Virus record (IMG/VR): IMGVR_UViG_2778261152_000005
Coordinates: 1 to 57,958 of that record
DNA: 57,958 nt
DNA from: a virus
Taxonomy: Duplodnaviria; Heunggongvirae; Uroviricota; Caudoviricetes
Direction: 5' to 3' (one strand)
Part shown: positions 2,922-57,958 of the stretch, in pieces
Layout: every line of letters starts with the position of its first letter
Numbering within the stretch: the stretch's first letter is position 1
Notes under the pieces: generated by a model
The model's input: only the letters and a program-made list of their open reading frames with translations
Database searches by the model: none
What the model was told of the DNA's origin: nothing
Translations under genes and position numbers: made by a program

Positions 2922-4286
2922 TTGAATCTTATAGAAAAATCATCATTTTCTATGCGTCACAATCAATTTTCACATTACAAACGCTCCGACACTTTAGCCG
3001 GAGATTTTATGAGATACAAGCCTAACCAATACTTAATCTGTGATTCTTACGGTAACTACTATTTAAGGATAACGCTGCCTGTGTATATGCAGCCCTTTTT
3101 TGAAGGAAAAAGGACGTTTGTCAGAAGTCTACACACAAGTAATCTTCGTGTTGCACGTAGAAAGCGTGATCAGATTGCAGATGAATACCATTGCTTACGG
3201 GAGAGTGTCGCCCCTGTAAACAGCACAATAGAAAACACGCTGGAACTGTTACGCAGTAAGGCTAAATACGCCAAAACAGCTACCAGAATGCAAGATACAG
3301 CGTCTTCGTGTCCGTCATTGCTTAAAATTCTTGAAATCTACCTGACAATTAACAGCACGAAGAAGAAGCCAGCCACTTTAGCTAAGGCAAGAAAAGCGGT
3401 AGAGATGTTTCTCTCCTACCGTAAAAAGCCTGATATTGCATTGCAAGATGTAAGCCGCACCACTGTTACAGGCTGGATTGAACACATGCAAAAAACCCTT
3501 TCACAACAATCAATTGCAAATTATATCAGCCCAATGGCCCAGCTATGGGAATTAGCTTCATCACGTTACCACGATGCGCCAGAAAGGGCGCTCTCCCCCT
3601 GGCGAGGGCATAGGCTTGATGTGGCACAAAGTAGAGAGAGCTACGAGGCATTTTCTAACAAAGAGCTATTGCAGGTGTTGCAAGTATTTTCCGGTGATTC
3701 AGCAGAAAACAAAGAAATGATGGCTTTGTGTCTTATCGGTGCCTATACAGGTATGCGGATCAATGAGATAGCAAGTCTCACAATAGACGATGTGAAAGAG
3801 ATCGAAGGTGTGCTGTGTTTTGAAATCACACAGGGAAAGACGAAAGCAGCGGCACGTGTTGTGCCTGTACATAGCCTTATCACTCCGTTGGTGTTGTCGC
3901 TGCGTGAAAAGCCTCACAATGGCTTTTTGTTCTATCACGCCAGCATTACAGAGCGTGCTGATGGTAAACGTTCCACGTGGCATACGCAGAGATTTACAAG
4001 AGCTAAACGAAAGGCTTTAGGGGAAAAGGGAACAGAAAGGAAAGTGTTTCATTCTCTGAGACACGGAGTAGCACAGCTTCTTGATCGAAATCAAATTCCA
4101 GAAGACAGGATCGCCCTTCTCCTGGGCCATACACGCGGCAATACAGAAACATTCCGCACATATAGCAAGAATGCAGCTTCTCCAGTAGAGCTTAAAAAAT
4201 ATATTGAGCTTTTACGCTACCCTGAAATAGAGAAAGGCTTATCAATCAATAAAAAATCAAATTTAAGGCGTAAAACAACACTGTAG
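2922..4286 (+). CDS. Tyrosine-type phage integrase
   Basis: ORF begins 55 bp after the att repeat; catalytic-region motifs …HSLRHGVAQLL… and …LLGHTRGNTETFRTYSK…; listed start is TTG at 2922, alternative ATGs at 2952 and 3009 (the latter with a GGAGA Shine-Dalgarno). Confidence 0.85.
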   Translation: MNLIEKSSFSMRHNQFSHYKRSDTLAGDFMRYKPNQYLICDSYGNYYLRITLPVYMQPFFEGKRTFVRSLHTSNLRVARRKRDQIADEYHCLRESVAPVNSTIENTLELLRSKAKYAKTATRMQDTASSCPSLLKILEIYLTINSTKKKPATLAKARKAVEMFLSYRKKPDIALQDVSRTTVTGWIEHMQKTLSQQSIANYISPMAQLWELASSRYHDAPERALSPWRGHRLDVAQSRESYEAFSNKELLQVLQVFSGDSAENKEMMALCLIGAYTGMRINEIASLTIDDVKEIEGVLCFEITQGKTKAAARVVPVHSLITPLVLSLREKPHNGFLFYHASITERADGKRSTWHTQRFTRAKRKALGEKGTERKVFHSLRHGVAQLLDRNQIPEDRIALLLGHTRGNTETFRTYSKNAASPVELKKYIELLRYPEIEKGLSINKKSNLRRKTTL

Positions 4287-4293
4287 ACGTAAT

Positions 4294-4330
4294 AAAGAGG
4301 CTTCAATATAGACTGATGCCTCTTTTATGA
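4294..4330. terminator. Hairpin terminator between convergent genes
   Basis: AAAGAGGC-(16 nt)-GCCTCTTT stem followed by TTTATGA, placed between int (+) and the 225-aa gene (-). Confidence 0.4.
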
Positions 4331-4366
4331 TTATCTCGTTACAGAGCGTTTCATAGGCGTTTAAGG

Positions 4367-5044
4367 CTATTGTTTAAATACTGGCGTTACAACGTCTTGC
4401 CCTGGGCTTTTTTGATTTTTCTGTTCTGTTGTATTTACCTGCATTTTAACCTGTCCCCCTACAGATTTATTTGGTGCTGTTTTTACCGCAATTGCGCTTG
4501 TAGTTGCTTTAGAGACAAGACGGATTTGCTCAAAATCAAGAGTAAACAATAGGCTTTCGCTTGCTTCTTCTGCGTAAGACATGCCAACTAACACAACGTT
4601 GTCATAATTTTTTAACTCAGTGACAAGTAGGAAAGGTTGGCGACTGTCCATCAACTGATTTAGGTATTCAAGCATAAGCATACGTCGATTGCCGTTAATT
4701 CCCGCATTCTTAATCATATCGGGATTGAGCTTCAATACGGTTTCAGAGATACGCCCTTGTAATGTGAACTTGTTATTCCGTATTTGAACATGATCACTAA
4801 CTTCTGATCCTGATTCGACGGCATAGCTTGTAACGTCTGCATTTCGGCTAACTTTCGTCGATTCCACGCTATCAAATGATAATGCCTGGTAGTCATTGTA
4901 AGCAGCATTTGCACCACTGCCGAGGTTAGAGGTAATGATCGCAAAGCCGTTACCCCCTTTAGTTGTTCTACCGTTGCTATCGTTGCTTGTGCTGTTGATT
5001 TTCGCCTCAGTCGGGCGACCAATGGTTAACGGACCCATTGCCAT
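4367..5044 (-). CDS. Hypothetical protein (225 aa)
   Basis: ORF in a co-directional block with 5092-6933; no recognisable motif. Confidence 0.45.
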   Translation of the reverse strand: MAMGPLTIGRPTEAKINSTSNDSNGRTTKGGNGFAIITSNLGSGANAAYNDYQALSFDSVESTKVSRNADVTSYAVESGSEVSDHVQIRNNKFTLQGRISETVLKLNPDMIKNAGINGNRRMLMLEYLNQLMDSRQPFLLVTELKNYDNVVLVGMSYAEEASESLLFTLDFEQIRLVSKATTSAIAVKTAPNKSVGGQVKMQVNTTEQKNQKSPGQDVVTPVFKQ

Positions 5045-5091: not shown

Positions 5092-6933
5092 TTAATAGGT
5101 TGACCCGCCTGACATAACACCCAGCGTTAATAGCTTGCTAAACTCAGCGGAAGATGCCTTTGATTTGAAGTCGATAAATTCGCTCAATCGTCCGGTGTCT
5201 GATTCGATAGTTAGCGGCACTTCTGCATTTACTTGTAATTCTGGATTGAAGTTAATAACAGGTGCAAAGGTGTGGGAAGGAGTCTTGATAGCTTGTTGTG
5301 CTGCACTCTGTTTCAGATTTGCAATGTTTTGTCCTTCGAGAGTGTATTGATTTACAGCCTGCGCCCCGCCTACCGTCTCTTCTGGCGTAAACCAGCCTTT
5401 AATAGTGTTAACCAGGGAATTGCTGTTATCTGGCTTAGTTGTTCCGGTGCCAGCGCCTTTATATTGGTTAGGAGTGAGATTAGAAAGATTCTGCTTCATT
5501 CCTTCGTTAGACAGTGGCGGTGCATCACCTAAATTCTTTTGAATAGCAGCCGTCTTCTCGTCGTTTTTCATCAGCCAGTTGATTGCTTTCATTACAGCGT
5601 TAACCAATCCGCCGATAGCCTCGCCTAATTTGGTAAACATTGGCAGCATTGCAACCATGCTCTTTTTAAACTCTTCAATCACTTTCGGATCAAGAGATTT
5701 CATAAAGCCATCAACAAAGGCGATCCCTTGTGAGTCAGAAAGCCCACTAAGTGCATTATTCAGTTCACGGAATTTAATAACGCTTTCCTGTTGTGCCTGC
5801 GTTACCCAGCGCCCTGATTCTCGTTGTTCTCGTGCTGATTGTTCCACTTCTTTAGCGGAGCGTGTCCAGTATTTAGAGGTGAGCATCAAATCATCAGCCA
5901 GATCTTCCAGACGACTACCGATTTGTGCATCTGAATAGCCTTTAGCTACCATTCCCTGAACTGCTTTACTAACCAGACCAGCCGGATTATCAGCAAAGTC
6001 TTTTAGATCCTTTTTAGTTAGGAATCCTTCATTCATTAAAGTATTGATGCCGCTATCGCCGCCCTTCCATTCTCCTTTACCAGTTTTCTTATCAACTACA
6101 TATTCAGCCTCATCATAAGATTTAGTAGCCTTCTCCCGTACATCTTTCATCTGATCGAGATACTTACGTTTACCTTGTTCGCCCATCATTGAATCAACGC
6201 CGTTTTTATAAGCCCATTGTTCAATATTGTTCATCTGGTTAACGTCTACACCGCCCAGCTTCGCACGGCTATACAATTCACCCAGCGTTTCAGCATTCGC
6301 AAAGCTGTTAGTAACAAATTCAGAGGCTTTGCTCATAGCCATATACGTAGCGCCAGCGCCTAAGCCACCCAGCATAACAGCCGCAGCACCGCCGCCAATA
6401 CTCCCGCTACCCTTAACAGGTGCATAGGCTTTAGCGTGAGCGTTACGATTGCCATTAATCTTACGTTGTTGCTGTTGTAGGCGTTTCATTTGGCTATTCA
6501 TACGTGCCAGACTAATAGCTCCTCTTTCATATTGGAGGGCAATTTCTCTAGCCTGTGCAATAGCTTTATATTGTTCCGCTACAGAAAGACGGTGCATTGC
6601 ACTAATGCTTGATCCAACGTCTAAAAGCTTTAATTCTGCCTTCTCTTTGCGTGCTGCCAGGGCTTTTTGTTCTCTTGCAACTACACGTTGAGCGGCTAAT
6701 TGTGCTTTAGCATTAGCTTTATCAGCCTGTGCTTGCTTTTTAGCAATATCGTCTACGTCTTTTTTTGCTTTAGCGGTTGATTGTTTATGTGTCTTAACAC
6801 GCAATTCTATATCTTTCACCGCCGCCATTTGTTTACGAAGTTTTTCTACTTCTGCTTTTGCTTTCTCTAATGATGGTCGGTTAACTTCGAAGGTGACAAC
6901 GTTCGAGAGGCGTGCCACGTTTAGCTCTAACAT
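5092..6933 (-). CDS. Coiled-coil protein with central Gly/Ala-rich hydrophobic segment, tape-measure-like (613 aa)
   Basis: N-terminal Lys/Ala/Gln-rich coiled-coil region, then …GSGSIGGGAAAVMLGGLGAGATYMAM…; function not established. Confidence 0.5.
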   Translation of the reverse strand: MLELNVARLSNVVTFEVNRPSLEKAKAEVEKLRKQMAAVKDIELRVKTHKQSTAKAKKDVDDIAKKQAQADKANAKAQLAAQRVVAREQKALAARKEKAELKLLDVGSSISAMHRLSVAEQYKAIAQAREIALQYERGAISLARMNSQMKRLQQQQRKINGNRNAHAKAYAPVKGSGSIGGGAAAVMLGGLGAGATYMAMSKASEFVTNSFANAETLGELYSRAKLGGVDVNQMNNIEQWAYKNGVDSMMGEQGKRKYLDQMKDVREKATKSYDEAEYVVDKKTGKGEWKGGDSGINTLMNEGFLTKKDLKDFADNPAGLVSKAVQGMVAKGYSDAQIGSRLEDLADDLMLTSKYWTRSAKEVEQSAREQRESGRWVTQAQQESVIKFRELNNALSGLSDSQGIAFVDGFMKSLDPKVIEEFKKSMVAMLPMFTKLGEAIGGLVNAVMKAINWLMKNDEKTAAIQKNLGDAPPLSNEGMKQNLSNLTPNQYKGAGTGTTKPDNSNSLVNTIKGWFTPEETVGGAQAVNQYTLEGQNIANLKQSAAQQAIKTPSHTFAPVINFNPELQVNAEVPLTIESDTGRLSEFIDFKSKASSAEFSKLLTLGVMSGGSTY

Positions 6934-38991: not shown

Positions 38992-39014
38992 CAAATACAA
39001 CAAAAATTGTATTT
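38992..39014. promoter_or_regulatory. Operator-like palindrome in the cI/cro intergenic region
   Basis: AAATACAA-CAAAAA-TTGTATTT inverted repeat. Confidence 0.35.
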
Positions 39015-39057
39015 AATAGAGGAAGGCTATAATTTCAACTCATACAAGGTATTAAAA

Positions 39058-39681
39058 ATGTCTCTCTCAGCACGCTTTAAAGCCCGCCGTCTCGAACTAG
39101 GAATGACACAAGTAGAGGTCGCAAACGCTGCGGGGGTTAGCCAACAATCTATCGAGTCAATCGAAAGCGGAAGAACTCGAAAGCCACGTAACCTTTTAGA
39201 CCTGGCTAAAGCGTTAAAATGTAGCCCGGACTGGCTTCTGAATGGTAAAAACATCATGCCACTCACTGAGATCAGCACCCGAAGAATCCCTGTATTGAGT
39301 TATGTACAGGCTGGCTGCTTAACTGAAGCAAGGGAAGTTACCGATCTGACTGGGGATTTCGAGTATGTACTGGCAGACTCCGACGTACCAGAGACATGCT
39401 TCGCGCTGCGCATTGATGGTGACAGTATGCAGCCAGAATTTAAGGAAGGGGATATTGTAATTATTGACCCTGACTTATGCCCCACACCTGGAGAATTTGT
39501 CGTTGCCAAGAATGGCGGCCACGAAGCGACTTTCAAAAAGTATCGTCCTTTAGGGATTGGCATAGACGACTTCGAACTGGTGCCACTTAATCCTGACTAT
39601 CCGGTTTTACGTAGCGCCGACATGAAGTTGCAAATCATCGGGGTGATGATTGAGCACCGCATTTACCGCCGTAAACGCTAA
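39058..39681 (+). CDS. CI-like repressor (HTH plus LexA/S24-type peptidase domain)
   Basis: N-terminal HTH (…LGMTQVEVANAAGVSQQSIESIESG…) and C-terminal S24-like region (…ALRIDGDSMQPEFKEGDIVIIDP…FVVAKNGGHEATFKKY…); start taken at ATG 39058. Confidence 0.75.
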   Translation: MSLSARFKARRLELGMTQVEVANAAGVSQQSIESIESGRTRKPRNLLDLAKALKCSPDWLLNGKNIMPLTEISTRRIPVLSYVQAGCLTEAREVTDLTGDFEYVLADSDVPETCFALRIDGDSMQPEFKEGDIVIIDPDLCPTPGEFVVAKNGGHEATFKKYRPLGIGIDDFELVPLNPDYPVLRSADMKLQIIGVMIEHRIYRRKR

Positions 39682-44056: not shown

Positions 44057-44132
44057 TCCACACCCACCCGGCCATGCGCCGGGTGTTTTGCAAAGAGCCT
44101 CCCTTTTCGCAAAGCACCCGCGAGGAATATCT

Positions 44133-46199
44133 ATGCCTGAAACCATTCTCTGGGGCGACCTGGAAACCTATTGCGAGATACCCATCACGAACGGCACGCA
44201 CGCTTATGCGGAAGGTGTCGAAGTGATGTTGTTTGCCTGGGCCATCGGCGACGAGCCGGTTAGCGTCTGGGATCTGATTGCTGGCGAACCTATCCCCAGC
44301 AGGCTGCGGAAGGCCATTGCCGATCCCGACACTCTGCTTTATTTCCACAATTCACATTTTGACCGTACGGTGCTGCGCCATGCAATGCCGGAGCTGGCGC
44401 CGGACGTTACCCGCTGGCACGACACGATGGTGCAGGCGCTGGCGCACAGCCTCCCCGGCGCGCTGGGGGCACTCTGTGAGGTGCTGGGCGTACCGCAGGA
44501 CAAGGCGAAGGACAAAGAAGGTAAAGCACTGATTCAGCTGTTCTGTAAGCCACGTCCGAAGAACAGCAAGCTGCGCCGCGCAACCAGCAAAACGCACCCG
44601 GTAGAGTGGCAGAGGTTCGTTGCCTACGCCGGGCTGGATATCGAGGCGATGCGCGAAGTTTATAAGCGGCTACCGAAGTGGAACTATCAGGGCGCCGAGC
44701 TGGCGTTATGGCATCGTGACCAGCGGATCAACGACCGCGGCGTATGCATGGATGTGCAGCTCGCACAGGCCGCCATCGAAGCGGTAGACCTTGAACAGAA
44801 AAGGCTGGCAAAGCGCACGCAGGTGATGACCGACGGCGAAGTACAGGCGGCCACACAGCGCGATGCGATGATTAAGCACATTGTCGAATCGTACGGCGTC
44901 GAGCTGCCGGATATGCAGCGCAGCACGCTGGAACGTCGCATCGCCGACCCTGACCTGCCGTCACCGGTGAAAGAGCTGCTGGCTATCCGCCTGCAGGCCA
45001 GCACCACGAGCACCAGTAAGTACAAATCGCTGATGAAGGGTATCAGCAGCGACGGGCGTCTGCGCGGTACGCTGCAATTCTGCGGCGCATCGCGTACCGG
45101 GCGCTGGGCCGGGCGGTTATTCCAGCCCCAGAACCTGCCCCGCCCGACGCTTGAGCAGGAACGCATCGATGAAGGCATCGAGGCGCTTAAATCCGGCTGC
45201 GCCGATCTGCTTTTCGATAATGTCATGGAGCTGACCAGTTCGGCGCTGCGCGGTTGCATTATGGCGCCGGCGGGTAAAAAGCTGGTTGTATCTGACCTGT
45301 CGAACATCGAAGGCCGAAAGCTGGCCTGGCTTGCCGGTGAGCAGTGGAAACTTGACGCATTCCGGCAGTACGACGAGGGCACTGGCCCCGACCTTTATAA
45401 GCTGGCCTACGCCAAAGCATTCAACATCACCCCGGAAGAAGTGACCAAATATCAGCGCCAGATAGGCAAGGTGATGGAACTGGGCCTCGGGTTTGGTGGA
45501 GGTGTCGCGGCGTTCCTGACCTTCGCACTGGTTTACGGCCTCGATCTTGAGGAACTGGCAACCGCAGCGCTGCCGAATATCCCGCGCGATGTGCGGCGCG
45601 AGGCTCAGAGCTGGTATGACGAATCGGTTAAACGCAAAGCGACGTATGGGCTATCGGAGCGCGTATTCATCGCTTGCGATTCGCTTAAGCGCCTGTGGCG
45701 CCGGGCACACCCGAAAACCTGCGATTTCTGGTACCAACTCGAGCGCACTGTCCGTGCCGCTATTGTCACCCCTAAGAAAACACTCTATTGCGGCTATCTG
45801 AAAGTGCGCCGCGATGGCGCATGGCTGCGTATCCAGTTGCCGTCCGGGCGCGCACTCTGCTACCCGTCGCCGTCGATTGAGAAAGGAAATATCACCTACA
45901 TGGGGATTAACTCCTACTCGCGGAAATGGCAACGGCTCAAAACCTACGGCGGAAAGCTGGTCGAAAACGTAACACAGGCCGCCGCCCGCGACGTTCTGGC
46001 CGGGAACATGCCGCTGATCGAGGATGCCGGTTACAGCATTGTGCTGACGGTACACGATGAAGTGATCACCGAAGCGCCGGACACTGACGATTTCAACGAT
46101 AAAGCACTCTCCGCGCTGCTCTCCACTAACCCCGAATGGGCGCCCGATATCCCGCTGAACGCTGGCGGCTTCGAGGCGTATCACTACCGTAAGGATTAA
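44133..46199 (+). CDS. Family A DNA polymerase (3'-5' exonuclease plus polymerase)
   Basis: Start at ATG 44133 with GAGGA upstream; N-terminal exonuclease-like …[11 protein letters not shown]… and later …HDEVITEAP…; track ORF begins at 44088. Confidence 0.7.
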
Positions 46200-46204
46200 T
46201 CGCT

Positions 46205-46417
46205 ATGGCACAAGGTAACGTAGAAAATTTCGCAATCATTGTGTTAGTCAACGGCCGCACATCACAGGTCGAACTAACAACATCGCAAAAACGTTTGTTC
46301 GCAAAGTTAACACTCGGCGCGCTCAACGATAGTGGCCCTCTGAAACTTATGCCAATCGACGACATGGTCCAGTTACAACCCGACACCGAAGCATTTTCAG
46401 ACGGTGATCCGCTATGA
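46205..46417 (+). CDS. Hypothetical small protein
   Basis: Tightly packed; stop overlaps next start. Confidence 0.4.
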   Translation: MAQGNVENFAIIVLVNGRTSQVELTTSQKRLFAKLTLGALNDSGPLKLMPIDDMVQLQPDTEAFSDGDPL

Positions 46418-46626
46418 AATTCATTTTTATGGTGATGGATAGTCGTGCGCAGTTCGATATCGACAGCGCCGCCATTCTGGAATGCTGCGGCGATAAACAA
46501 CCCACCTGGCGCACTCTGCGCAGAGACTGGGGTGATCAGGGCGCAGTTCTGGTCCGCTTTCGTCTGGTACCAAACACTAACAGCGAAGTCGCTACCGACC
46601 CCGAAGTTGTCGGCACCATCAACTGA
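46414..46626 (+). CDS. Hypothetical small protein
   Basis: Overlapping start/stop with the upstream gene. Confidence 0.4.
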   Translation: MKFIFMVMDSRAQFDIDSAAILECCGDKQPTWRTLRRDWGDQGAVLVRFRLVPNTNSEVATDPEVVGTIN

Positions 46627-46637
46627 GGTAACCCCCT

Positions 46638-46856
46638 ATGGCATTTAAGTATCGGGACAGTCCGCTTTATTACCGGACTGCGCGGGAGGCTTTGCGCCTT
46701 GAGCAGTCCGGCGAGTATGACCGGGCGGCAAAAGTCTGGGCCAAAGCAAACCGCGAATCACGTAACGAACTGAATCAGGACTGGAGCGAACGCCGGTCTG
46801 ATTTTTGCCTGATGCAGAACATGCGCGAAAAGCGTAAGGCGGTGGACGATGCCTAA
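46638..46856 (+). CDS. Hypothetical small protein
   Basis: ORF overlapping the next gene start. Confidence 0.4.
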   Translation: MAFKYRDSPLYYRTAREALRLEQSGEYDRAAKVWAKANRESRNELNQDWSERRSDFCLMQNMREKRKAVDDA

Positions 46857-47043
46857 CATCGACAACAAGGGGTGGGGTTTTCCCGCTCTGTCGAAAAAAG
46901 CGCATTTCTTTAATTCGGGGGAAGCCATATCACTATGCGGTAAATGGATGTTCACCGGCATCAGGATTGATGAATGGCATGAACACCCTGAGAACTGCGC
47001 TACCTGCATGAAGAAACGCAAAAAACAGGAAGGCGAAAAATAA
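46849..47043 (+). CDS. Hypothetical small Cys-containing protein (possible zinc ribbon)
   Basis: …SLCGKW…ENCATCMKK…. Confidence 0.4.
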   Translation: MPNIDNKGWGFPALSKKAHFFNSGEAISLCGKWMFTGIRIDEWHEHPENCATCMKKRKKQEGEK

Positions 47044-47312
47044 TGGCTTACGAACGTGAAAGCCTCATCGAAAAGCACCTCGTCGCCGAAGTGAAAAAGT
47101 CTGGCGGGGTCGCCTTTAAGTTCGTTTCACCCGGTCGCCGCTCGGTACCGGATCGCATTGTCCTGCTACCCGGCGGCCGCCTCGTTTTCGTTGAATGCAA
47201 AGCACCCGGCAAAGCACCACGCGCCGACCAGCTGCGCGAGCACGAACGATTGCGCGCGCTGGGCTTTACCGTGGTGGTGTTGGATAGCAAAAATCTGGAG
47301 GGGATATTGTGA
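47043..47312 (+). CDS. VRR-NUC domain nuclease
   Basis: …SVPDRIVLLPGGRLVFVECKAPGKAPRADQLREHERLRALGFTVVVL… carries the PD-(D/E)xK D…E-C-K arrangement typical of VRR-NUC. Confidence 0.65.
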   Translation: MAYERESLIEKHLVAEVKKSGGVAFKFVSPGRRSVPDRIVLLPGGRLVFVECKAPGKAPRADQLREHERLRALGFTVVVLDSKNLEGIL

Positions 47313-47815
47313 ATCTTCCGGCCATTCTCGACATGTGCTGCGGTTCTCGTATGTTTTGGTTTAACAAAAGCGACCCGCGCGCCGTGTATTTGGATGCCCG
47401 TAGCGAGTCACACGTGCTTTGCGATAACAGGAAGTTGGAGATTCGCCCGGACGTACTCGGTGATTTCAGACAGTTGCCATTTGCCGACGGTCAATTTTTA
47501 CAGGTGATATACGATCCCCCTCATCTGCGCCGCGCCGGGCCTAACGGCTGGATGCGAAAAAAGTATGGCCAGTTGGATAAAGAGAACTGGCGTGAAGATC
47601 TTCGCGCAGGATTCGCAGAAGCATTTCGCGTGCTGGCACCCGGCGGCACGTTAATTTTCAAATGGAATGCTACGCAGATCCCTGTCCGCCAAATTATAGA
47701 ATTAACCGACCAGCAACCTACTATCTGGCAACGCACTGGCAAAGCAGATAAAACCCACTGGATAGTATTTTTAAAAGCCGTAGAGGGGTACCAGAACGGA
47801 TATGACCTCATCTAA
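47309..47815 (+). CDS. Putative small DNA methyltransferase (DPPH motif)
   Basis: …LDMCCGSRMFW… then …VIYDPPHLRR…; unusually short (168 aa), so assignment is tentative. Confidence 0.45.
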   Translation: MNLPAILDMCCGSRMFWFNKSDPRAVYLDARSESHVLCDNRKLEIRPDVLGDFRQLPFADGQFLQVIYDPPHLRRAGPNGWMRKKYGQLDKENWREDLRAGFAEAFRVLAPGGTLIFKWNATQIPVRQIIELTDQQPTIWQRTGKADKTHWIVFLKAVEGYQNGYDLI

Positions 47816-49202
47816 AATTTTCACCCCCCGCCCTTATCAAGACCTCATCATCAACCACGAAATCGACATCCTGCGCTGCAACATCTGGGCGGGCATGGGC
47901 ATGGGTAAAACCGTGGCGACGCTCACCACGCTGGAAGATCTCTTTATGGCGGGCGCAGAGACTCAGCCCGCGCTGGTTCTCGCGCCGCTGCGCGTGGCGG
48001 CCAGCACCTGGCCGGATGAAGCGGTTAAATGGGGGCATCTGCGCAATATCGAGGTACAGCCGATTGTTGGTAATGCCAAAGCGCGCGCGGCAGCGCTGGC
48101 GAACAGCAACGCCAGCGTGTTTACCATCAACTACGACAATCTGGTCTGGCTGGTGGAAGAACTGGGCGGCCGCTGGCCGTTCGGTACCGTTATCCCCGAC
48201 GAAAGCACCCGGCTGAAATCCTTCCGGCTGCGCGGTGGCGGTAAGCGCGCGGCGGCGCTGGGCAAAGTGGCACATAAACATATCCGACGCTGGATGAATC
48301 TCACTGGTACGCCAGCGCCAAACGGCCTGGTGGATTTGTGGGGGCAGGCGTGGTTTGTGGATCAGGGGCAGCGCCTCGGGCGAACTTACGGCGCGTTTAC
48401 CTCCCGCTGGTTCAACTCAATACAGTTTCCGGGGCAGAGCTGGACGAAGCTGGAACCGTTCACCCATTCGCAGGACGAAATACAGCGGGCACTGGCCGAC
48501 GTCACTATCTCCCTGGACGCCGCCGACTGGTTCGATATCAAAGAGCCTATCCATAACGTGATCCGCGTAGACATGCCGCCGAAGGCTCGCCAGCAGTATC
48601 GTGAAATGGAAAAGGAAATGTTCCTCGAGCTGAACGGCGAAGGCATCGAAGCGCCTAACGCCGCGGCAAAAACGGTGAAGTGTCTGCAAATCGCCAGCGG
48701 CGCGGTGTACACCGACGACGCCGGGAGCTGGTCAGAACTGCACGACGCGAAGCTGCAGGCGCTGGACAGTATTCTCACCGAAGCAGCTGGCGCGCCGGTA
48801 CTGGTGGCCTACCACTGGAAACACGACCTCGAGCGTTTGCTTAAAGCATTCCCTCGCGGTCGCCACCTCGACCAGGATCCACAGACGCTGCGCGACTGGA
48901 ACGCCGGAAAGATACCGGTTCTGTTCGCACACCCGGCCAGCGCAGGCCACGGCCTGAATATGCAGGACGGTGGCAACATATTGGTGTTTTTCTCGCACTG
49001 GTGGGACCTGGAACAGTACCAGCAAATTATCGAACGCATCGGTCCAACCCGGCAGATTCAGGCCGGACACAACCGCCCGGTGTTCATTCACCACATTATC
49101 GTCGCCGACACTATGGACGAAATGGTGATGGAACGCCGCAACTCAAAACGAACAGTGCAGGACATCCTGCTCGATGCCATGAAAAAGAGAGGTATAGCAT
49201 GA
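47802..49202 (+). CDS. SNF2-family superfamily-2 helicase
   Basis: …GMGMGKTVATL… Walker A and …VIPDESTRLK… DExx box. Confidence 0.7.
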   Translation: MTSSKIFTPRPYQDLIINHEIDILRCNIWAGMGMGKTVATLTTLEDLFMAGAETQPALVLAPLRVAASTWPDEAVKWGHLRNIEVQPIVGNAKARAAALANSNASVFTINYDNLVWLVEELGGRWPFGTVIPDESTRLKSFRLRGGGKRAAALGKVAHKHIRRWMNLTGTPAPNGLVDLWGQAWFVDQGQRLGRTYGAFTSRWFNSIQFPGQSWTKLEPFTHSQDEIQRALADVTISLDAADWFDIKEPIHNVIRVDMPPKARQQYREMEKEMFLELNGEGIEAPNAAAKTVKCLQIASGAVYTDDAGSWSELHDAKLQALDSILTEAAGAPVLVAYHWKHDLERLLKAFPRGRHLDQDPQTLRDWNAGKIPVLFAHPASAGHGLNMQDGGNILVFFSHWWDLEQYQQIIERIGPTRQIQAGHNRPVFIHHIIVADTMDEMVMERRNSKRTVQDILLDAMKKRGIA

Positions 49203-51204: not shown

Positions 51205-51480
51205 GTGGCTTCCATTTCCATCAGATGTCCTTCCTGCTCCGCTACTGAAGGCGTGGTGCGTAACGGCAAAAGCACTGCCGGACATCAGCGCTATCTCTGC
51301 TCTCATTGCCGTAAAACATGGCAACTACAGTTCACTTACACCGCCTCTCAGCCCGGTAAGCACCAGAAAATCATTGATATGGCCATGAATGGCGTCGGAT
51401 GTCGCGCCAGTGCACGCATTATGGGCGTTGGCCTCAACACGGTTTTACGTCACTTAAAAAACTCAGGCCGCAGTCGGTAA
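51205..51480 (+). CDS. insA: IS1 InsA
   Basis: 91 aa, [43 protein letters not shown]…; A6C slippery site near its 3' end. Confidence 0.9.
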
Positions 51481-51902
51481 CCTCGCGCATACAACCGGGC
51501 AGTGATGTGATTGTCTGCGCTGAAATGGACGAACAGTGGGGCTACGTCGGTGCTAAATCACGTCAGCGCTGGCTGTTTTACGCGTATGACAGGATACGGA
51601 GGACGGTTGTGGCGCACGTCTTCGGTGAACGCACTCTGGCCACACTGGAGCGTCTTCTGAGCCTGCTGTCGGCCTTTGAGGTCGTGGTATGGATGACGGA
51701 TGGCTGGCCGCTGTATGAATCACGCCTGAAGGGAAAGCTGCACGTTATCAGCAAGCGTTATACTCAGCGCATTGAGCGACATAATCTGAATCTGAGACAA
51801 CATCTGGCAAGGCTGGGACGGAAGTCACTGTCGTTCTCAAAATCGGTGGAGTTGCATGACAAGGTCATCGGGCATTATCTGAACATAAAACACTATCAGT
51901 AA
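51399..51902 (+). CDS. insB: IS1 InsB frame (expressed as InsAB' by -1 frameshift)
   Basis: …[33 protein letters not shown]…[46 protein letters not shown]…. Confidence 0.85.
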
Positions 51903-52236
51903 GTTGGAGTCATTACCGTACTCTCCTTGGAGTATGAAGACGTTACTCACTTTAAGATTAGCATCCTCAAACCACTGTGAATTTGCTCCCATACGGAAAG
52001 AGGTGACTCAGACCTACAAAAATTTGTCAGGCCCGAAGGGTATCTTGCGCCAGCATAAAATACTGGATATAACCTAACTATTCATTTTAGCAATAGCCAT
52101 TGCTTACGAGAGCTAGCTAATCTACGTAAATGCTAGGCATAACAGTGTCTTTAAAAGATATAGGTGGAATAAGTTCTGAAGTATGAGTGCTCTTCTTTTT
52201 CATCTATTCGTAATCAAAATGTGGATGTGATTGTTA

Positions 52237-55200
52237 ATGACAAATAAAAAAAATTTGAGTAATCCTTTTTCTACAGGCGGAGGCGGTGTTCATTTTGAAG
52301 CACATGTCCAAGCGTCTTTTGTTGCTCTAATGCTAACAGGCGGTAATGCACCTTGTCTTCCTTGTTGGCCCATAGTGGAGATAAATCTCCAGGGCAAGAT
52401 TGATGGTTTTGATACCGACGACTTGATCGTCGTTGTTAAAGATTTCAACAGCAATGAAAAACGGAAGCTATTAGGACAAATAAAGCATTCTATTTCATTT
52501 ACGCAAGGTAATGCGATACTTGGGGAAGTTATACAGGCTGCTTGGAACGATTTCAACAATCCTGACTTGTTTACCAAGAACAAGGATGTTATTGCACTGA
52601 TCACCGGTCCGCTCAGTTCGACCGATACACACAATGTGCTCTGGTTATTGAATCAGGCTAGACACACAAAAACAGTCGATGAATTTTTGAGGAACGTTCA
52701 AAAAGCCAAGTTCAGCCCGCCTAAAAGTACTGAGAAACTGGAGGCCATCCAGTTTCATCTGAAGATGGCAAACAGTGGGAACGATTTAACAAACGATGAG
52801 CTTTATGACTTTTTGAACCATTTCCATTTACTAGGGTACGATCTGGGTAATGAATCAGGCGTCGTCCTTTCTTTGCTGCACTCCCACATAGCGCAATTCC
52901 ATCAACAGTATCCTCAGTGGGTTTGGTCGCGGATAGTTGATATCGTACAAACTTGGAATAAAGATGCTGGCACTATCATTTCAAGTAAGCTACCTGAAGA
53001 TCTTTTAGATGTTTTCAAACAAAGGGTTATTGCTGAAATACCTGAGAAGTTGAGGTTAGTACAACCGGTAGTCAAAACCGACTGGACTCACCACCCAGAT
53101 GCCTCTTATTTAGCCTTAGCAGTGTTGATTGGGCAATGGAATGATAAAAATGAGTGTGACCGAAATGTACTAACCCAATTGCTTGGTATCAGCTATGACG
53201 AATGGCTAAGGAAGGCTCGAGAGATTTTACATAGCCCAGACAGTCCTTTGTCCCTAAAAAACGGCATTTGGAAAGTAACAAATCGAATGGAGCTATGGAG
53301 TCTTCTTGGATCCCGCATTTTTGATCAGAATCTTGAATTGTTTAAGTCTTCCGCGATTTCCGTACTCAAAGAGCCAGACCCTGCTTTCGAATTACCTGCT
53401 GAAGAGCGTTACGCTGCTAGTATTCATGGTAAGGTGCTGAAGTTTTCATCCACGCTGCGACAAGGTATAGCAGAGGGTTTAGCCATAATCGGGAGTCGGC
53501 CAGAGGTTTGCGTTAACTGCTCTCAGGGGAATGCTGAAACTTCCGTTAACGTCGCAATACATACAATTTTGACTGATGCAAACTGGGTTTTATGGGGTAG
53601 CCTAAACGGTTTGCTACCAACTTTGGCTGAAGCAGCTCCTGCAAAATTTCTTGATGCAGTTGAGAAGGCAATGCGTCAGACTCCTTGTGTATTTGATGAG
53701 CTTTTTTCTCAAGAAGTAAATGGTATCACTGGTGGTAATTATCTGACAGGACTGCTATGGGCTCTAGAAGAATTAGCCTGGGATGAGCAATACCTAGTAC
53801 GCGTCTGTGTTGTACTGGCCGAACTTGCCAGCCACGATCCTGGGGGCAAGTGGGCTAATCGACCATCTAACTCGCTTACTACTATATTATTACCGTGGTT
53901 TCCGCAAACGCTGGCATCTATAGAAAAACGAAAAGTTGCAGTCAACGTCATCTTGCAGGAATGGCCTGACATTGCCTGGAATTTACTCGTCCAGCTTCTA
54001 CCCGGTCACCATCAAACCTCTTCTGGGTCACACAAGCCCTCTTGGCGCCGAATAATCCCAGATGATTGGGAAAGCAAAGTGACTAATCAGGATTACTGGT
54101 TGCAGACATCTTTTTATGCTGAGCTTGCCGTCAAAAACGCCGGAGAAGATATCGAACGCCTTACCTTGTTGATTGATAATTTTGATAGCCTTCCATCTCC
54201 TGCTTTCGAACATCTTCTTAAGCACCTCTCTTCGGAAACAATTAATTGTCTTAATGAAGAGCAGCGAGTTGTAATTTGGGATCATCTTCATCGATTCGCA
54301 AATAAACATCGGCGATTCTCTAATGCTAATTGGGCTTTACCTGATGATCTGCTGACCAAAATCGAAAATGTTGCCGAGCAACTGGCACCTACCAATCCAT
54401 TCAACTTATATCAGCACCTTTTTTCAAATCGAGATTTTGATCTTTACTTAGAAAATGGCGATTGGGAAGAACGGAGAAATAAACTCGAATCAAGGCGCGA
54501 ATCCGCAATATCAGAAATTCTTAGGCAAGATGGCGCAGAAGGCGTTATTCGATTTGCAGATCACGTTTCTGCGCCCCATCAAATAGGAAGTGTACTCGGC
54601 ACTATCAACGATGATGTGTTCGAAAAACTTCTTTTGCCCCGTTTCCTCAATACAAAAGAAAATAAGTATAAGGCATTGGTAAGCGCTTTTATTTGGAAGC
54701 GTTTCTATCTCAAAGGCTGGGAGTGGTTCGACAATCTGGATAAAGCTGACTGGACTCCTGAACAGTTAGGCCAATTCTTTGCTTATCTGCCTTTTAACAA
54801 GGAGACCTGGACCCGAATCTCTCATTATCCTCAAGCTTCCGAGAACGAATATTGGGCTCGCACCGATGCAAATCCTGACCTGGGTGAAGGTGATCTTACT
54901 AGTGCCATCGATAAGCTGATTGATCATGGCAGACCACTTGCGGCAATCAATTGCCTGTGCAGGATGCATCAGACAAAGCAGCCAATCGATACTGAACAGT
55001 GTATCCGCGCTTTGCTTGCTGCCACTTCAACTAACGAATCTAGCTCCAACATGGATGGTTACAACATAACTACCCTTATCCAATTTCTTCAGACTGATCC
55101 CAAAGTGAATCCGGATAATCTTTTTCAGATCGAGTGGGCTTACCTTCCATTGCTCGATGGTCACCAAGATGCTGTGCCTAAGTTCCTTGAGAATAAAATG

Positions 55201-55779
55201 GCTAATGATCCAGAATTTTTCTGCGAAGTAATCCAACTCATTTATCGTTCTGACAAAGAAGACAATATGACAAGTGAACCAACAGATGAATTGAAAGCAA
55301 TCGCAAAAAATGCCTGGACTCTTTTGTACAACTGGAAGACACCGCCAGGAAGCCAATCAAATGGGACGTTCAACGGAGAACGCTTTACTGAATGGCTTCA
55401 GAAAGTTAAGGAGGGTTCTACGGCATCAGGTCACCTGGACGTTGCACTCAGCAAAGTTGGTGAAGTCTTGATTTATACTCCCTCCGATCCGAATGGCTTG
55501 TGGATAAACCGAGAGGTCGCAGCTGCTCTCAACGATCGAGATGCTGAGAGTATGCGCAGGGGCTACATGACAGGAGCCTACAACTCACGAGGTGTTTATT
55601 GTGTTGATCCAACAGGAAAACCTGAGAGAGAGCTAGCTGACCAGTTCCGGGCAAAAGCAGAAGAAGTGGAAAACGCTGGTTTTCAGCGATTCGCCGTTAC
55701 CTTAAGAGATTTAGCGGTTGGCTATGACCACGAAGCTGCACAGGTTATCAGCAATCTAAATATTGGAGAGGATGATTAA
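52237..55779 (+). CDS. Large uncharacterised protein (about 1180 aa), candidate accessory or defence-island gene
   Basis: Single long ORF (track start is TTG at 52231; first ATG 52237); visibly AT-richer than surrounding DNA; no P-loop seen by eye; N-terminus …NPFSTGGGGVHFEAHVQASFVALMLTGG…GFDTDDLIVVVKD… unrecognised. Confidence 0.7.
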   Translation: MTNKKNLSNPFSTGGGGVHFEAHVQASFVALMLTGGNAPCLPCWPIVEINLQGKIDGFDTDDLIVVVKDFNSNEKRKLLGQIKHSISFTQGNAILGEVIQAAWNDFNNPDLFTKNKDVIALITGPLSSTDTHNVLWLLNQARHTKTVDEFLRNVQKAKFSPPKSTEKLEAIQFHLKMANSGNDLTNDELYDFLNHFHLLGYDLGNESGVVLSLLHSHIAQFHQQYPQWVWSRIVDIVQTWNKDAGTIISSKLPEDLLDVFKQRVIAEIPEKLRLVQPVVKTDWTHHPDASYLALAVLIGQWNDKNECDRNVLTQLLGISYDEWLRKAREILHSPDSPLSLKNGIWKVTNRMELWSLLGSRIFDQNLELFKSSAISVLKEPDPAFELPAEERYAASIHGKVLKFSSTLRQGIAEGLAIIGSRPEVCVNCSQGNAETSVNVAIHTILTDANWVLWGSLNGLLPTLAEAAPAKFLDAVEKAMRQTPCVFDELFSQEVNGITGGNYLTGLLWALEELAWDEQYLVRVCVVLAELASHDPGGKWANRPSNSLTTILLPWFPQTLASIEKRKVAVNVILQEWPDIAWNLLVQLLPGHHQTSSGSHKPSWRRIIPDDWESKVTNQDYWLQTSFYAELAVKNAGEDIERLTLLIDNFDSLPSPAFEHLLKHLSSETINCLNEEQRVVIWDHLHRFANKHRRFSNANWALPDDLLTKIENVAEQLAPTNPFNLYQHLFSNRDFDLYLENGDWEERRNKLESRRESAISEILRQDGAEGVIRFADHVSAPHQIGSVLGTINDDVFEKLLLPRFLNTKENKYKALVSAFIWKRFYLKGWEWFDNLDKADWTPEQLGQFFAYLPFNKETWTRISHYPQASENEYWARTDANPDLGEGDLTSAIDKLIDHGRPLAAINCLCRMHQTKQPIDTEQCIRALLAATSTNESSSNMDGYNITTLIQFLQTDPKVNPDNLFQIEWAYLPLLDGHQDAVPKFLENKMANDPEFFCEVIQLIYRSDKEDNMTSEPTDELKAIAKNAWTLLYNWKTPPGSQSNGTFNGERFTEWLQKVKEGSTASGHLDVALSKVGEVLIYTPSDPNGLWINREVAAALNDRDAESMRRGYMTGAYNSRGVYCVDPTGKPERELADQFRAKAEEVENAGFQRFAVTLRDLAVGYDHEAAQVISNLNIGEDD

Positions 55780-56894: not shown

Positions 56895-57467
56895 TCACAG
56901 CTCAGGCCATACGATATCCGGGGCTGTATTTATATCAATCCGACTCACTAATACCCGGTATTTTTTCCAGGAAGATAGCATCGAGACCTCCTCATCAGTT
57001 GCCATTTCAAAATTAACAGCATCCTGCAGAATTGTTATGTTATCAGTCGCTTCCTGGATTAATCTTGTCTTTTTCTCTTCCGCCTCCCGGATCCGGAAGA
57101 GTTTTTCTGCTTCCGTATCCTTCACCCAGGCTGTGCCGTTCCACTTCTGAAACTCCCCTCCCGGCGACAACCAGGTGACATTTTCCGGTAATGGGCCAAG
57201 TTCAGAAATAAATAACGCGTCGCCGGAAGCCACGTCATAGACGGTTTTACCCCGATGGTCTTCAACGAGATGCCACGATGCCTCATCACTGTTGAAAACA
57301 GCCACAAAGCCAGCAGGAATATCTGGCGGTGCAATATCGGTACTGTTTGCTGGCAGACCTGTATGAGGTGGAATATATGCGTCACCGTCACCAATAAATT
57401 CATTAGTTCCGGCCAGCAGATTATAAATTTTGATGGTTCGTGATTGTTCACTCATTCTGAATGCCAT
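56895..57467 (-). CDS. Tail fibre assembly protein (Tfa-like)
   Basis: 190 aa resembling lambda-type Tfa chaperones; directly downstream of the side tail fibre gene. Confidence 0.75.
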
Positions 57468-57958
57468 TATGCAAGCCTCACAATATAGTTAAATGCGATG
57501 TTTTTGACGGTGTTTTCCGCGTTACCAGCAGCGTTAACGGTGATGGTGTGTCCATGTGAGCCAATCGCAACGGAGTGCGTATGAGCACCAATACCCACAG
57601 TATGTGTATGCGCCCCAGCACTTGCTGCAGTACCTGATACTGAGTGGGTATGCGCGCCAGCAGAATTCGTTGCACCTAAGTGAGTTTGAGCAGAGTTCGA
57701 CGAAGCTACTCTACCGGAGCTAACGTTAGCATTATCCCCCTGAGATATCGGATGCGTATGTGCACCTGCTGAAGCTGCTGTTCCGCTAACGCTATGGGTA
57801 TGCGCACCAGTGTTATTCGTAGATTTAGTTCCATAATCAAACGATGATGTGTTTTTTGTCCCTAAATCTGTATTTGAAGCACTGGCGCTGTGGGTGTGCG
57901 ATTTAATGCCGTCCTGTTCCTGAGACAATACGGCACGACCACTGGCGGGCTTGCCCTT
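57467..57958 (-). CDS. Side tail fibre protein, C-terminal portion (5' end outside window)
   Basis: GAHTHS(V/T) repeats (…[22 protein letters not shown]…) typical of lambdoid side tail fibre C-termini; frame open to window edge. Confidence 0.7.

Follow-up and report, generated by a model that had tools for sequence, protein, structure and literature searches.

The window analyzed here is a 57,958-nt stretch of viral DNA (Caudoviricetes) covering positions 1 to 57,958 of IMG/VR record IMGVR_UViG_2778261152_000005. It encodes two overlapping plus-strand genes: a VRR-NUC nuclease open reading frame (ORF) of 89 amino acids (47043..47312, ATG start) and, directly after it, a 168-residue ORF resembling methyltransferases that use S-adenosylmethionine (SAM) (47309..47815, GTG start), referred to below as the MTase. 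A preliminary description of this locus, made from the sequence alone, had placed a VRR-NUC nuclease at 47043 followed with a 4-nt overlap by a gene carrying a DPPH motif, and its coordinates, the length of 168 residues and the position of DPPH at residues 69-72 all hold. That description also treated the overlapping genes as a pair that could act in anti-restriction or DNA processing. We find instead that the nuclease and the MTase are independent functions that are neighbors by chance in an early replication operon. In the joint reading that we consider the probable one, with moderate confidence, VRR-NUC is a nuclease of branched DNA and Holliday junctions, and the MTase is independent, exchangeable cargo, an enzyme that would blunt host restriction through N-methylation of a base, with DNA as the most likely substrate. 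Both proteins and both families are already present in public resources under the same names, and the finding is in this sense already known and ordinary.

A cargo slot between VRR-NUC and SNF2

The independence of the two genes is apparent from both families. Three scans of viral contigs, seeded with proteins from Escherichia coli, Streptococcus phage T12 and Gordonia phage Pickett, yielded 239 MTase loci, and a VRR-NUC gene lies within 4-6 kb of the MTase in only three of them. One is a prophage almost identical to this one (L009), another is a module of divergent sequence that keeps the same gene order and overlaps (L225; VRR-NUC 50% and MTase 54% identical), and the third is a streptococcal phage in which VRR-NUC and SNF2 are followed, after 436 nt, by the MTase (L112). 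In phages T12, LP-101, Pickett, Eho49 and 1127AP1 the MTase sits among unrelated early genes without VRR-NUC, often beside another DNA methylase, and the genes directly next to it in 80 enterobacterial loci form 71 unrelated clusters. From the side of the nuclease, we collected the viral contigs whose VRR-NUC is closest to that of the window (80 contigs at 89% identity or more; loci L248-L327). Of these, 78 could be evaluated, and 11 of the 78 have the MTase. The conserved co-occurrence that would mark a restriction-modification pair is therefore lacking in both samples.

These counts largely refute the alternative that VRR-NUC and the MTase form a functional two-gene unit, restriction-modification-like or anti-restriction, in which methylation would direct or restrain the nuclease, and we regard it as very improbable. 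Such a unit would account for the translational coupling provided by the 4-nt overlap, for the recurrence of both the overlap and the order VRR-NUC, MTase, SNF2 in the divergent locus L225, and for the position of the MTase on the other side, directly upstream of the nuclease, in seven further viral loci and in E. coli E62 (a 68% identical protein). However, it is difficult to reconcile with the 236 of 239 MTase loci that have no VRR-NUC, with the small share of closest VRR-NUC loci that have the MTase, and with a GTGA junction that is shared by SNF2 and at least nine unrelated ORFs. Stand-alone VRR-NUCs are also structure-specific, being neither sequence- nor methylation-specific (PMC4103454), and PADLOC returned no defense-system match for the window nuclease.

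The overlap itself is a property of the nuclease gene. The coupling junction lies within the 3′ end of VRR-NUC (47297..47312, +) and forms the left edge of the cargo slot. It comprises the Shine-Dalgarno sequence GGAGG (47297-47301, +), eight bases 5′ of the GTG start of the MTase (47309-47311, +), and the TGA stop of VRR-NUC (47310-47312, +), so that start and stop share the four bases GTGA (47309-47312). The nuclease 3′ end ...CTGGAGGGGATATTGTGA is the left boundary of the slot, and the left junction GGAGGGGATATTGTGA is conserved in most of the evaluable loci. The same GTG opens SNF2 itself in two cargo-free loci (L265 and L273) and opens at least nine unrelated ORFs elsewhere; because of this, we read the 4-nt overlap as a property of the VRR-NUC end, which serves as a docking site. 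The overlap noted in the preliminary description thus belongs to the 3′ end of VRR-NUC, which couples to any gene that comes next.

Across the 78 related prophages, the VRR-NUC stop and the SNF2 start are separated by between -4 nt (direct overlap) and 2163 nt, and the MTase is one of many alternative cassettes in this hypervariable slot. A C5 DNA methyltransferase (PF00145) occupies it in 13 loci, Rha and Arc-like regulators in approximately 10, a D12 Dam-type methyltransferase (PF02086) and an HNH protein in 2 loci each, and a PAPS-reductase-like protein and the small MTase in 1 locus each, in addition to several unknown minus-strand ORFs, partly membrane proteins. The right junction, ...GGATATGACCTCATCTAA, is also conserved and spans the SNF2 ATG (47798-47815 in the window). 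Cargo proteins of several kinds end in this junction, with ...YDLI or ...RDLI, namely the small MTase, the C5 and Dam-type MTases and the PAPS reductase, and in the window the MTase 3′ end overlaps the start of the SNF2 gene by 14 nt. Since cargo ORFs end inside the right junction and the SNF2 start, the non-homologous and partly disordered C-terminal tail of the MTase is explained (residues 158-168, 47780..47815, +, ...GYQNGYDLI*); its homologs terminate at about residues 156-160. The idea that 168 residues is unusually short and may denote a distinct family or only a methyltransferase-like fold was mistaken: members of the phrog_954 family, to which the MTase belongs, are usually 155-162 residues long, the window copy is if anything long, and its surplus is read-through into the SNF2 start. 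Base composition also sets the cargo apart from its surroundings, with a GC content of 50.5% and 55% at third codon positions in the MTase versus 58-59% and 64-72%, respectively, in VRR-NUC, SNF2 and PolA. Bounded by the VRR-NUC Shine-Dalgarno sequence and GTGA on one side and the SNF2 start on the other, the slot is a compact case of modular accessory-gene exchange and a site in which to search for anti-defense genes.

Several observations concern the occupants of this and other variable positions. The membrane-like minus-strand ORFs in the slot could be superinfection-exclusion or defense genes. In E. coli E62, the small MTase takes the place of a 64-residue ORF upstream of VRR-NUC, which suggests a second cargo slot on the upstream side of the nuclease. 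In phage vB_EcoM-606R2 (L001), PolA and the module's small ORFs are separated by a gene for a protein with a TIR-like domain (4053-4814), and its site is another variable accessory position.

The VRR-NUC nuclease

The 89-residue ORF is a single-domain PD-(D/E)xK protein, and several lines of comparison agree with its naming as a VRR-NUC nuclease in the preliminary description. It matches phrog_93 ('endonuclease') at 5.8e-30 and two solved phage structures, 4QBO (stNUC) at 1.8e-13 and 4QBN (saNUC) at 8.3e-10, and RefSeq WP_096935345.1, a 'VRR-NUC domain-containing protein', has the same sequence. Its PD...ExK signature (P36-D37 and E51-C52-K53) aligns with the active-site region of stNUC. The score against Pfam VRR_NUC (PF08774), 13.7 bits, falls under the 23.8-bit cutoff, and is offset by the phrog_93 and 4QBO matches.

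Stand-alone VRR-NUCs (stNUC, saNUC and psNUC) are dimers with a Holliday-junction-resolvase fold that cleave four-way junctions symmetrically (Pennell et al., PMC4103454). Like stNUC from Streptococcus phage P9 and saNUC from Salmonella phage SETP3, the window nuclease has about 90 residues, a single domain and the PD...ExK signature, and it too lies in a phage replication module alongside a SNF2 helicase. Unlike for these two proteins, its dimerization and cleavage are predictions from homology, and its Pfam VRR_NUC match is sub-threshold. By homology to stNUC and saNUC, we infer that this core gene of the module probably encodes a dimeric, structure-selective nuclease, which would cut four-way junctions and branched intermediates of phage replication and recombination.

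Family, fold and likely substrate of the methyltransferase

The MTase belongs to a large and already catalogued family (PHROG 954, PADLOC MTase_II/oMTase and RefSeq WP_096935343.1). It aligns along its whole length with phrog_954 ('DNA methyltransferase'; 2e-78, residues 4-160) and, likewise over the full length, with two PADLOC models: MTase_II (PDLC03288) at 5.1e-65 and oMTase, 'orphan methyltransferase' (PDLC03730), at 2.8e-50. The RefSeq entry, a 'class I SAM-dependent methyltransferase', has the same sequence as the 168-residue protein. In Pfam only a C-terminal segment is matched, by the generic Methyltransf_11/25 families (Methyltransf_11 at 21.9 bits), and NCBIfam gave nothing significant for the window MTase. 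A single-sequence search returned 2141 matches among 90%-identity clusters, a profile search at least 7999, and 1897 clusters were matched at 50% identity; both the MTase and VRR-NUC genes are thus real, conserved ORFs and not chance ones. Homologs with 45-73% identity are present in 253 sequenced phages of Streptococcus, Vibrio, Acinetobacter, Porphyromonas, Listeria, Gordonia, Lactobacillus, Enterococcus, Staphylococcus, Salmonella and other hosts.

Among these relatives, Streptococcus phage T12 gp28, Listeria phage LP-101 gp40 and Gordonia phage Pickett gp57 share with the window MTase full-length homology in the 45-73% range, the motifs, among them an invariant DPPH, a core of about 155 residues and a location in the early region of a temperate phage. 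Unlike them, the window protein has 168 residues with a read-through tail of 11-12 residues, and unlike most phrog_954 members, it occupies the VRR-NUC/SNF2 slot of a PolA-type replication module (three of the 239 loci). Longer phrog_954 database entries carry heterogeneous N-terminal extensions without conserved domains. Considered as clues to the substrate, such extensions and domain fusions were set aside, being heterogeneous, without informative domains, and probably mis-called starts or assembly chimeras; the isoelectric point, considered as a clue to nucleic-acid binding, was uninformative (family median 7.65).

Two individual relatives deserve mention in their own right. Pickett gp57 (L005:3992-4468) is 57-60% identical to the window MTase and 60-76% identical to proteins on contigs also found through the E. 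coli-seeded scan, which is either unusually high cross-phylum conservation for a phage accessory gene or recent transfer. A 294-residue protein from an ENA metagenome (P0344) joins a full MTase copy to another one without motif I, which starts with ...TKQLCDGR; this fusion may be a tandem duplication, a recombination product or an assembly artefact.

Conservation within the family follows the layout of a class I amino-methyltransferase. The alignments cover phages of Proteobacteria, Firmicutes, Actinobacteria and Bacteroidota hosts. In a cross-phylum alignment of 32 sequences D8, D29, R31, P47, D69-P70-P71-H72, Y86, W94, E104, R107, G113, K118 and W119 are invariant and G12, D48 and D52 nearly so, and DPPH is also invariant in a further alignment of 120 sequences. 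These residues sit at the positions expected for motif I, the acidic residue of strand 2, motif III and motif IV. Motif I, the SAM-binding loop ILDMCCGS (residues 6-13, 47324..47347, +), has D8 invariant in both diverse alignments and G12 invariant in one (A3) and at least 90% conserved in the other (A2); C10 and C11 are invariant in A3. Motif IV, D69-P70-P71-H72 (47513..47524, +), the catalytic motif in exocyclic-amine methyltransferases, fits their consensus (D/N/S)-P-P-(Y/F/W/H), and TrmN gives a precedent for histidine at the fourth position. After DPPH comes LRRAGPNGWMRKKYG, with K85, Y86 and G87 invariant; in TrmN, the motif NPPH likewise has a flexible basic loop directly after it (PMC3367198). 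From these conserved motifs, the MTase core (residues 1-157, 47309..47779, +) can be described as a minimal class I SAM-dependent amino-methyltransferase that probably binds SAM.

Structure prediction supports this assignment. An AlphaFold model built from a shallow alignment had a mean predicted local distance difference test (pLDDT) score of 75, which with 120 diverse homologs (AF2) was 89.8, together with a predicted template modeling score of 0.86. In the latter model just the last five residues (164-168) fall below a pLDDT of 50 and are predicted to be disordered, the last ten-residue block averaging 48. The model has the features of a class I enzyme: a seven-stranded beta sheet, a glycine-rich motif I and an acidic end of strand 2. 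There are no helices from strand 1 to strand 4, and a beta-hairpin (residues 33-45) stands in place of the usual helices B and C. This absence of helices suggests a pared-down Rossmann fold in the model, one sheet face of which may be exposed or used for oligomerization. The core of about 156 residues is wholly taken up by the catalytic fold, with no target-recognition domain. The methyltransferase-like fold proposed in the preliminary description, for which the lack of a predicted SAM-binding fold was to count as refutation, is thus borne out: a class I SAM-binding fold is confidently predicted, with intact catalytic residues and the motif IV of an amino-methyltransferase.

The same conservation makes it improbable that the MTase is a catalytically dead fold, serving to bind or deplete SAM or to bind nucleic acid, or that it methylates a protein or small molecule. 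D8, G12, D29, D52 and DPPH are invariant or nearly so over thousands of sequences, which argues for retained amino-group catalysis, and the setting in a phage replication region points to a nucleic-acid substrate. As a working mechanism, we propose that the enzyme would hold SAM through motif I (D8 and G12), D29 and D52, that DPPH would methylate the exocyclic amino group of a flipped-out base, and that the basic loop past DPPH (R74, R75, R83, K84 and K85) would contact the nucleic acid.

For that nucleic acid, genomic context favors DNA. The slot alternately holds two bona fide DNA methyltransferase families and elsewhere the MTase often abuts DNA methyltransferases, and for these reasons we favor DNA as its substrate. 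Examples of such adjacency are Pickett gp56/57 and LP-101 gp39/40, and a large C5 MTase lies downstream in 11 of 80 loci. The likely target would be N6-adenine or N4-cytosine in a short or relaxed sequence context, and the MTase may work during lytic growth, shielding progeny DNA from host restriction. Of the anti-restriction or DNA-processing role suggested in the preliminary description, the role itself therefore remains plausible for the MTase, and the notion of two genes exerting it as a pair does not survive the co-occurrence counts. Its position bears on its timing: the MTase gene belongs to the early replication operon and follows a CI-like repressor, and orphan MTases of prophages are reported to be silent in lysogens (PMC8597746). 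For these two reasons, a comparison of methylation between a lysogen and a cured strain could give a false negative.

Precedents for small phage methyltransferases exist. PamA, the 141-residue prophage adenine methyltransferase of S. aureus phage mΦ11, methylates DNA site-specifically at GATC and carries NPPY at residues 64-67 (PMC12435837). Like the window MTase, PamA is a very small phage orphan enzyme with motif IV near residue 65-70 and no separate recognition domain; in contrast, its motif is NPPY and not DPPH, and its specificity is known. None of the phrog_954 members matches Pfam Dam (PF05869), which we presume to be the family of PamA, in a comparison made by family and not with the PamA sequence. 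PamA and M.ECPA8_3172P of a Stx phage, both considered as relatives, showed no homology and serve as functional precedents only. The prophage orphan amino-methyltransferases Hia5/Hin1523 and M.EcoGII, thought to be broadly anti-restriction, offer a functional analogy if the window MTase is relaxed in specificity. As a relative, Hia5/Hin1523 was rejected, since it has 281 residues, an alpha-class order, a recognition region of about 90 residues and DPPY at 194 (PMC3299994), and no homology was detected. Similarly, cds16 of pneumophage SpSL1, a predicted N6-methyladenine MTase for which no methylation was detected, is not homologous (BLASTP E 0.045, beta-class layout).

Several points weigh against a DNA substrate. 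Our literature searches found no experimentally characterized phrog_954 member, and the name 'DNA methyltransferase' that PHROG, PADLOC and UniRef give to the family may reflect nothing more than annotation transfer. The window MTase is below all Pfam thresholds for DNA methyltransferases, with only the generic Methyltransf_11 match, and 15 of 32 phrog_954 members show weak matches to N6_N4_Mtase, the best at 7e-4. Additionally, identity of 45-60% across phyla is unusual for DNA methyltransferases of varied specificity and could indicate a universal substrate. The literature search also found no description of DPPH as a motif IV.

An alternative is a substrate in RNA. The MTase might methylate guanine N2 or adenine N6 at a universal position of host tRNA or rRNA, tuning translation or blocking a defense system or toxin that targets tRNA or rRNA, a possibility that we rate as unlikely. 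The structures closest to the MTase are tRNA and rRNA enzymes that form N2-methylguanosine (m2G). However, Trm11, TrmN and Trm14 (THUMP-type tRNA m2G enzymes) and RsmC (rRNA m2G) carry additional domains for RNA binding (THUMP, or a duplicate of the MTase domain), their similarity to the window MTase is insignificant (E approximately 0.4), and they are cellular housekeeping enzymes compared to its phage setting. In sequence searches of the PDB, both single and profile, the only match was PH0226 at 2.6e-4, which carries no information on substrate. A broader proposal, which we hold to be possible at low probability, is that phrog_954 is not a conventional site-specific DNA methyltransferase but either a sequence-independent DNA amino-methyltransferase or a phage tRNA/rRNA N-methyltransferase acting on universally conserved host RNA. 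Its basis is the at least 8000 clusters in prophages of at least four phyla, the absence of a target-recognition domain, the invariant DPPH and the cross-phylum identity of 45-60%. If true, the family would represent an unrecognized and very widespread phage function in counter-defense or host takeover, now mislabeled through annotation transfer. Whichever nucleic acid it modifies, the small-MTase family is enormous, and fixing its substrate would settle the annotation of thousands of prophage genes as acting on DNA or RNA.

The replication module and the wider window

The plus-strand operon that contains both genes is tightly packed, with gaps and overlaps of -8 to +11 nt from PolA to SNF2. 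Its order is CI-like repressor, DUF2800 nuclease, Enc34-type single-stranded DNA-binding protein, PolA, small ORFs, VRR-NUC, cargo, SNF2, AlpA and P4-type integrase, the last lying past the operon on the opposite strand. The CI/LexA-like repressor (39007-39681), a VapE-type primase/helicase and podovirus-like structural genes are found upstream. The prophage is integrated and podovirus-like, and this is its early replication operon. At its head is a family A DNA polymerase, PolA (44088..46199, +; Pfam DNA_pol_A 8.1e-12), followed by four small ORFs (46205-47043, +). Two of these are a PerC/ANR-like small regulator of 72 residues (46638-46856, +; phrog_2227, with a sub-threshold match to Pfam PerC) and a Cys-rich ORF of 64 residues directly upstream of VRR-NUC (46849-47043, +; phrog_2358). 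Prophages and phages of E. coli keep the order PolA...VRR-NUC...SNF2, and the module also occurs in E. coli phage vB_EcoM-606R2 and its relatives. Among 5426 complete E. coli genomes 103 carry the replication module, and at megablast sensitivity none of those 103 has the MTase in the VRR-NUC/SNF2 slot.

The gene on the right side of the slot is a SNF2-family helicase of 466 residues (47802..49202, +; phrog_62 DNA helicase 5.6e-158, Pfam SNF2-rel_dom 5.9e-11). SNF2 proteins with an adjacent MTase raise the alternative of a DISARM-, Dpd- or Zorya-like anti-phage defense island on the prophage, and the window SNF2 protein indeed has weak PADLOC matches to DpdE, ZorD and DrmD (1e-10 to 1e-6). We consider this alternative extremely improbable. 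Those matches span the generic helicase core of much larger proteins, whereas phrog_62, which the protein matches far more strongly, is a phage replication helicase. SNF2 is also fixed in the PolA/VRR-NUC/DUF2800 module with or without the MTase, no further defense components are present, and PADLOC finds no defense system at these genes.

Beyond the operon, the window holds a number of less familiar features. No tRNA gene was found in the window, and hence none that defines an attachment site, and its right flank has no contiguous match among complete E. coli genomes. An IS1 transposase ORF (51399-51902, +; PF03400 1.3e-74) lies between the integrase and an ORF of 1182 residues, and probably explains thousands of multi-copy matches in E. 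coli genomes. The 1182-residue ORF (52231-55779, +), just outside the integrase and adjoining the IS1 transposase, has phrog_18693 (unknown function, 4.8e-119) as its sole match, Pfam and PADLOC giving none, and could be a large uncharacterized accessory or defense gene. The left end of the window carries a second integrase and a tape-measure-like gene, and the right end genes for a tail fiber, tail-fiber assembly and a hexapeptide acetyltransferase (together 2922-4286, +; 5092-6933, -; and 56895-57928, -). More than one prophage or prophage remnant therefore seems to contribute to the window.

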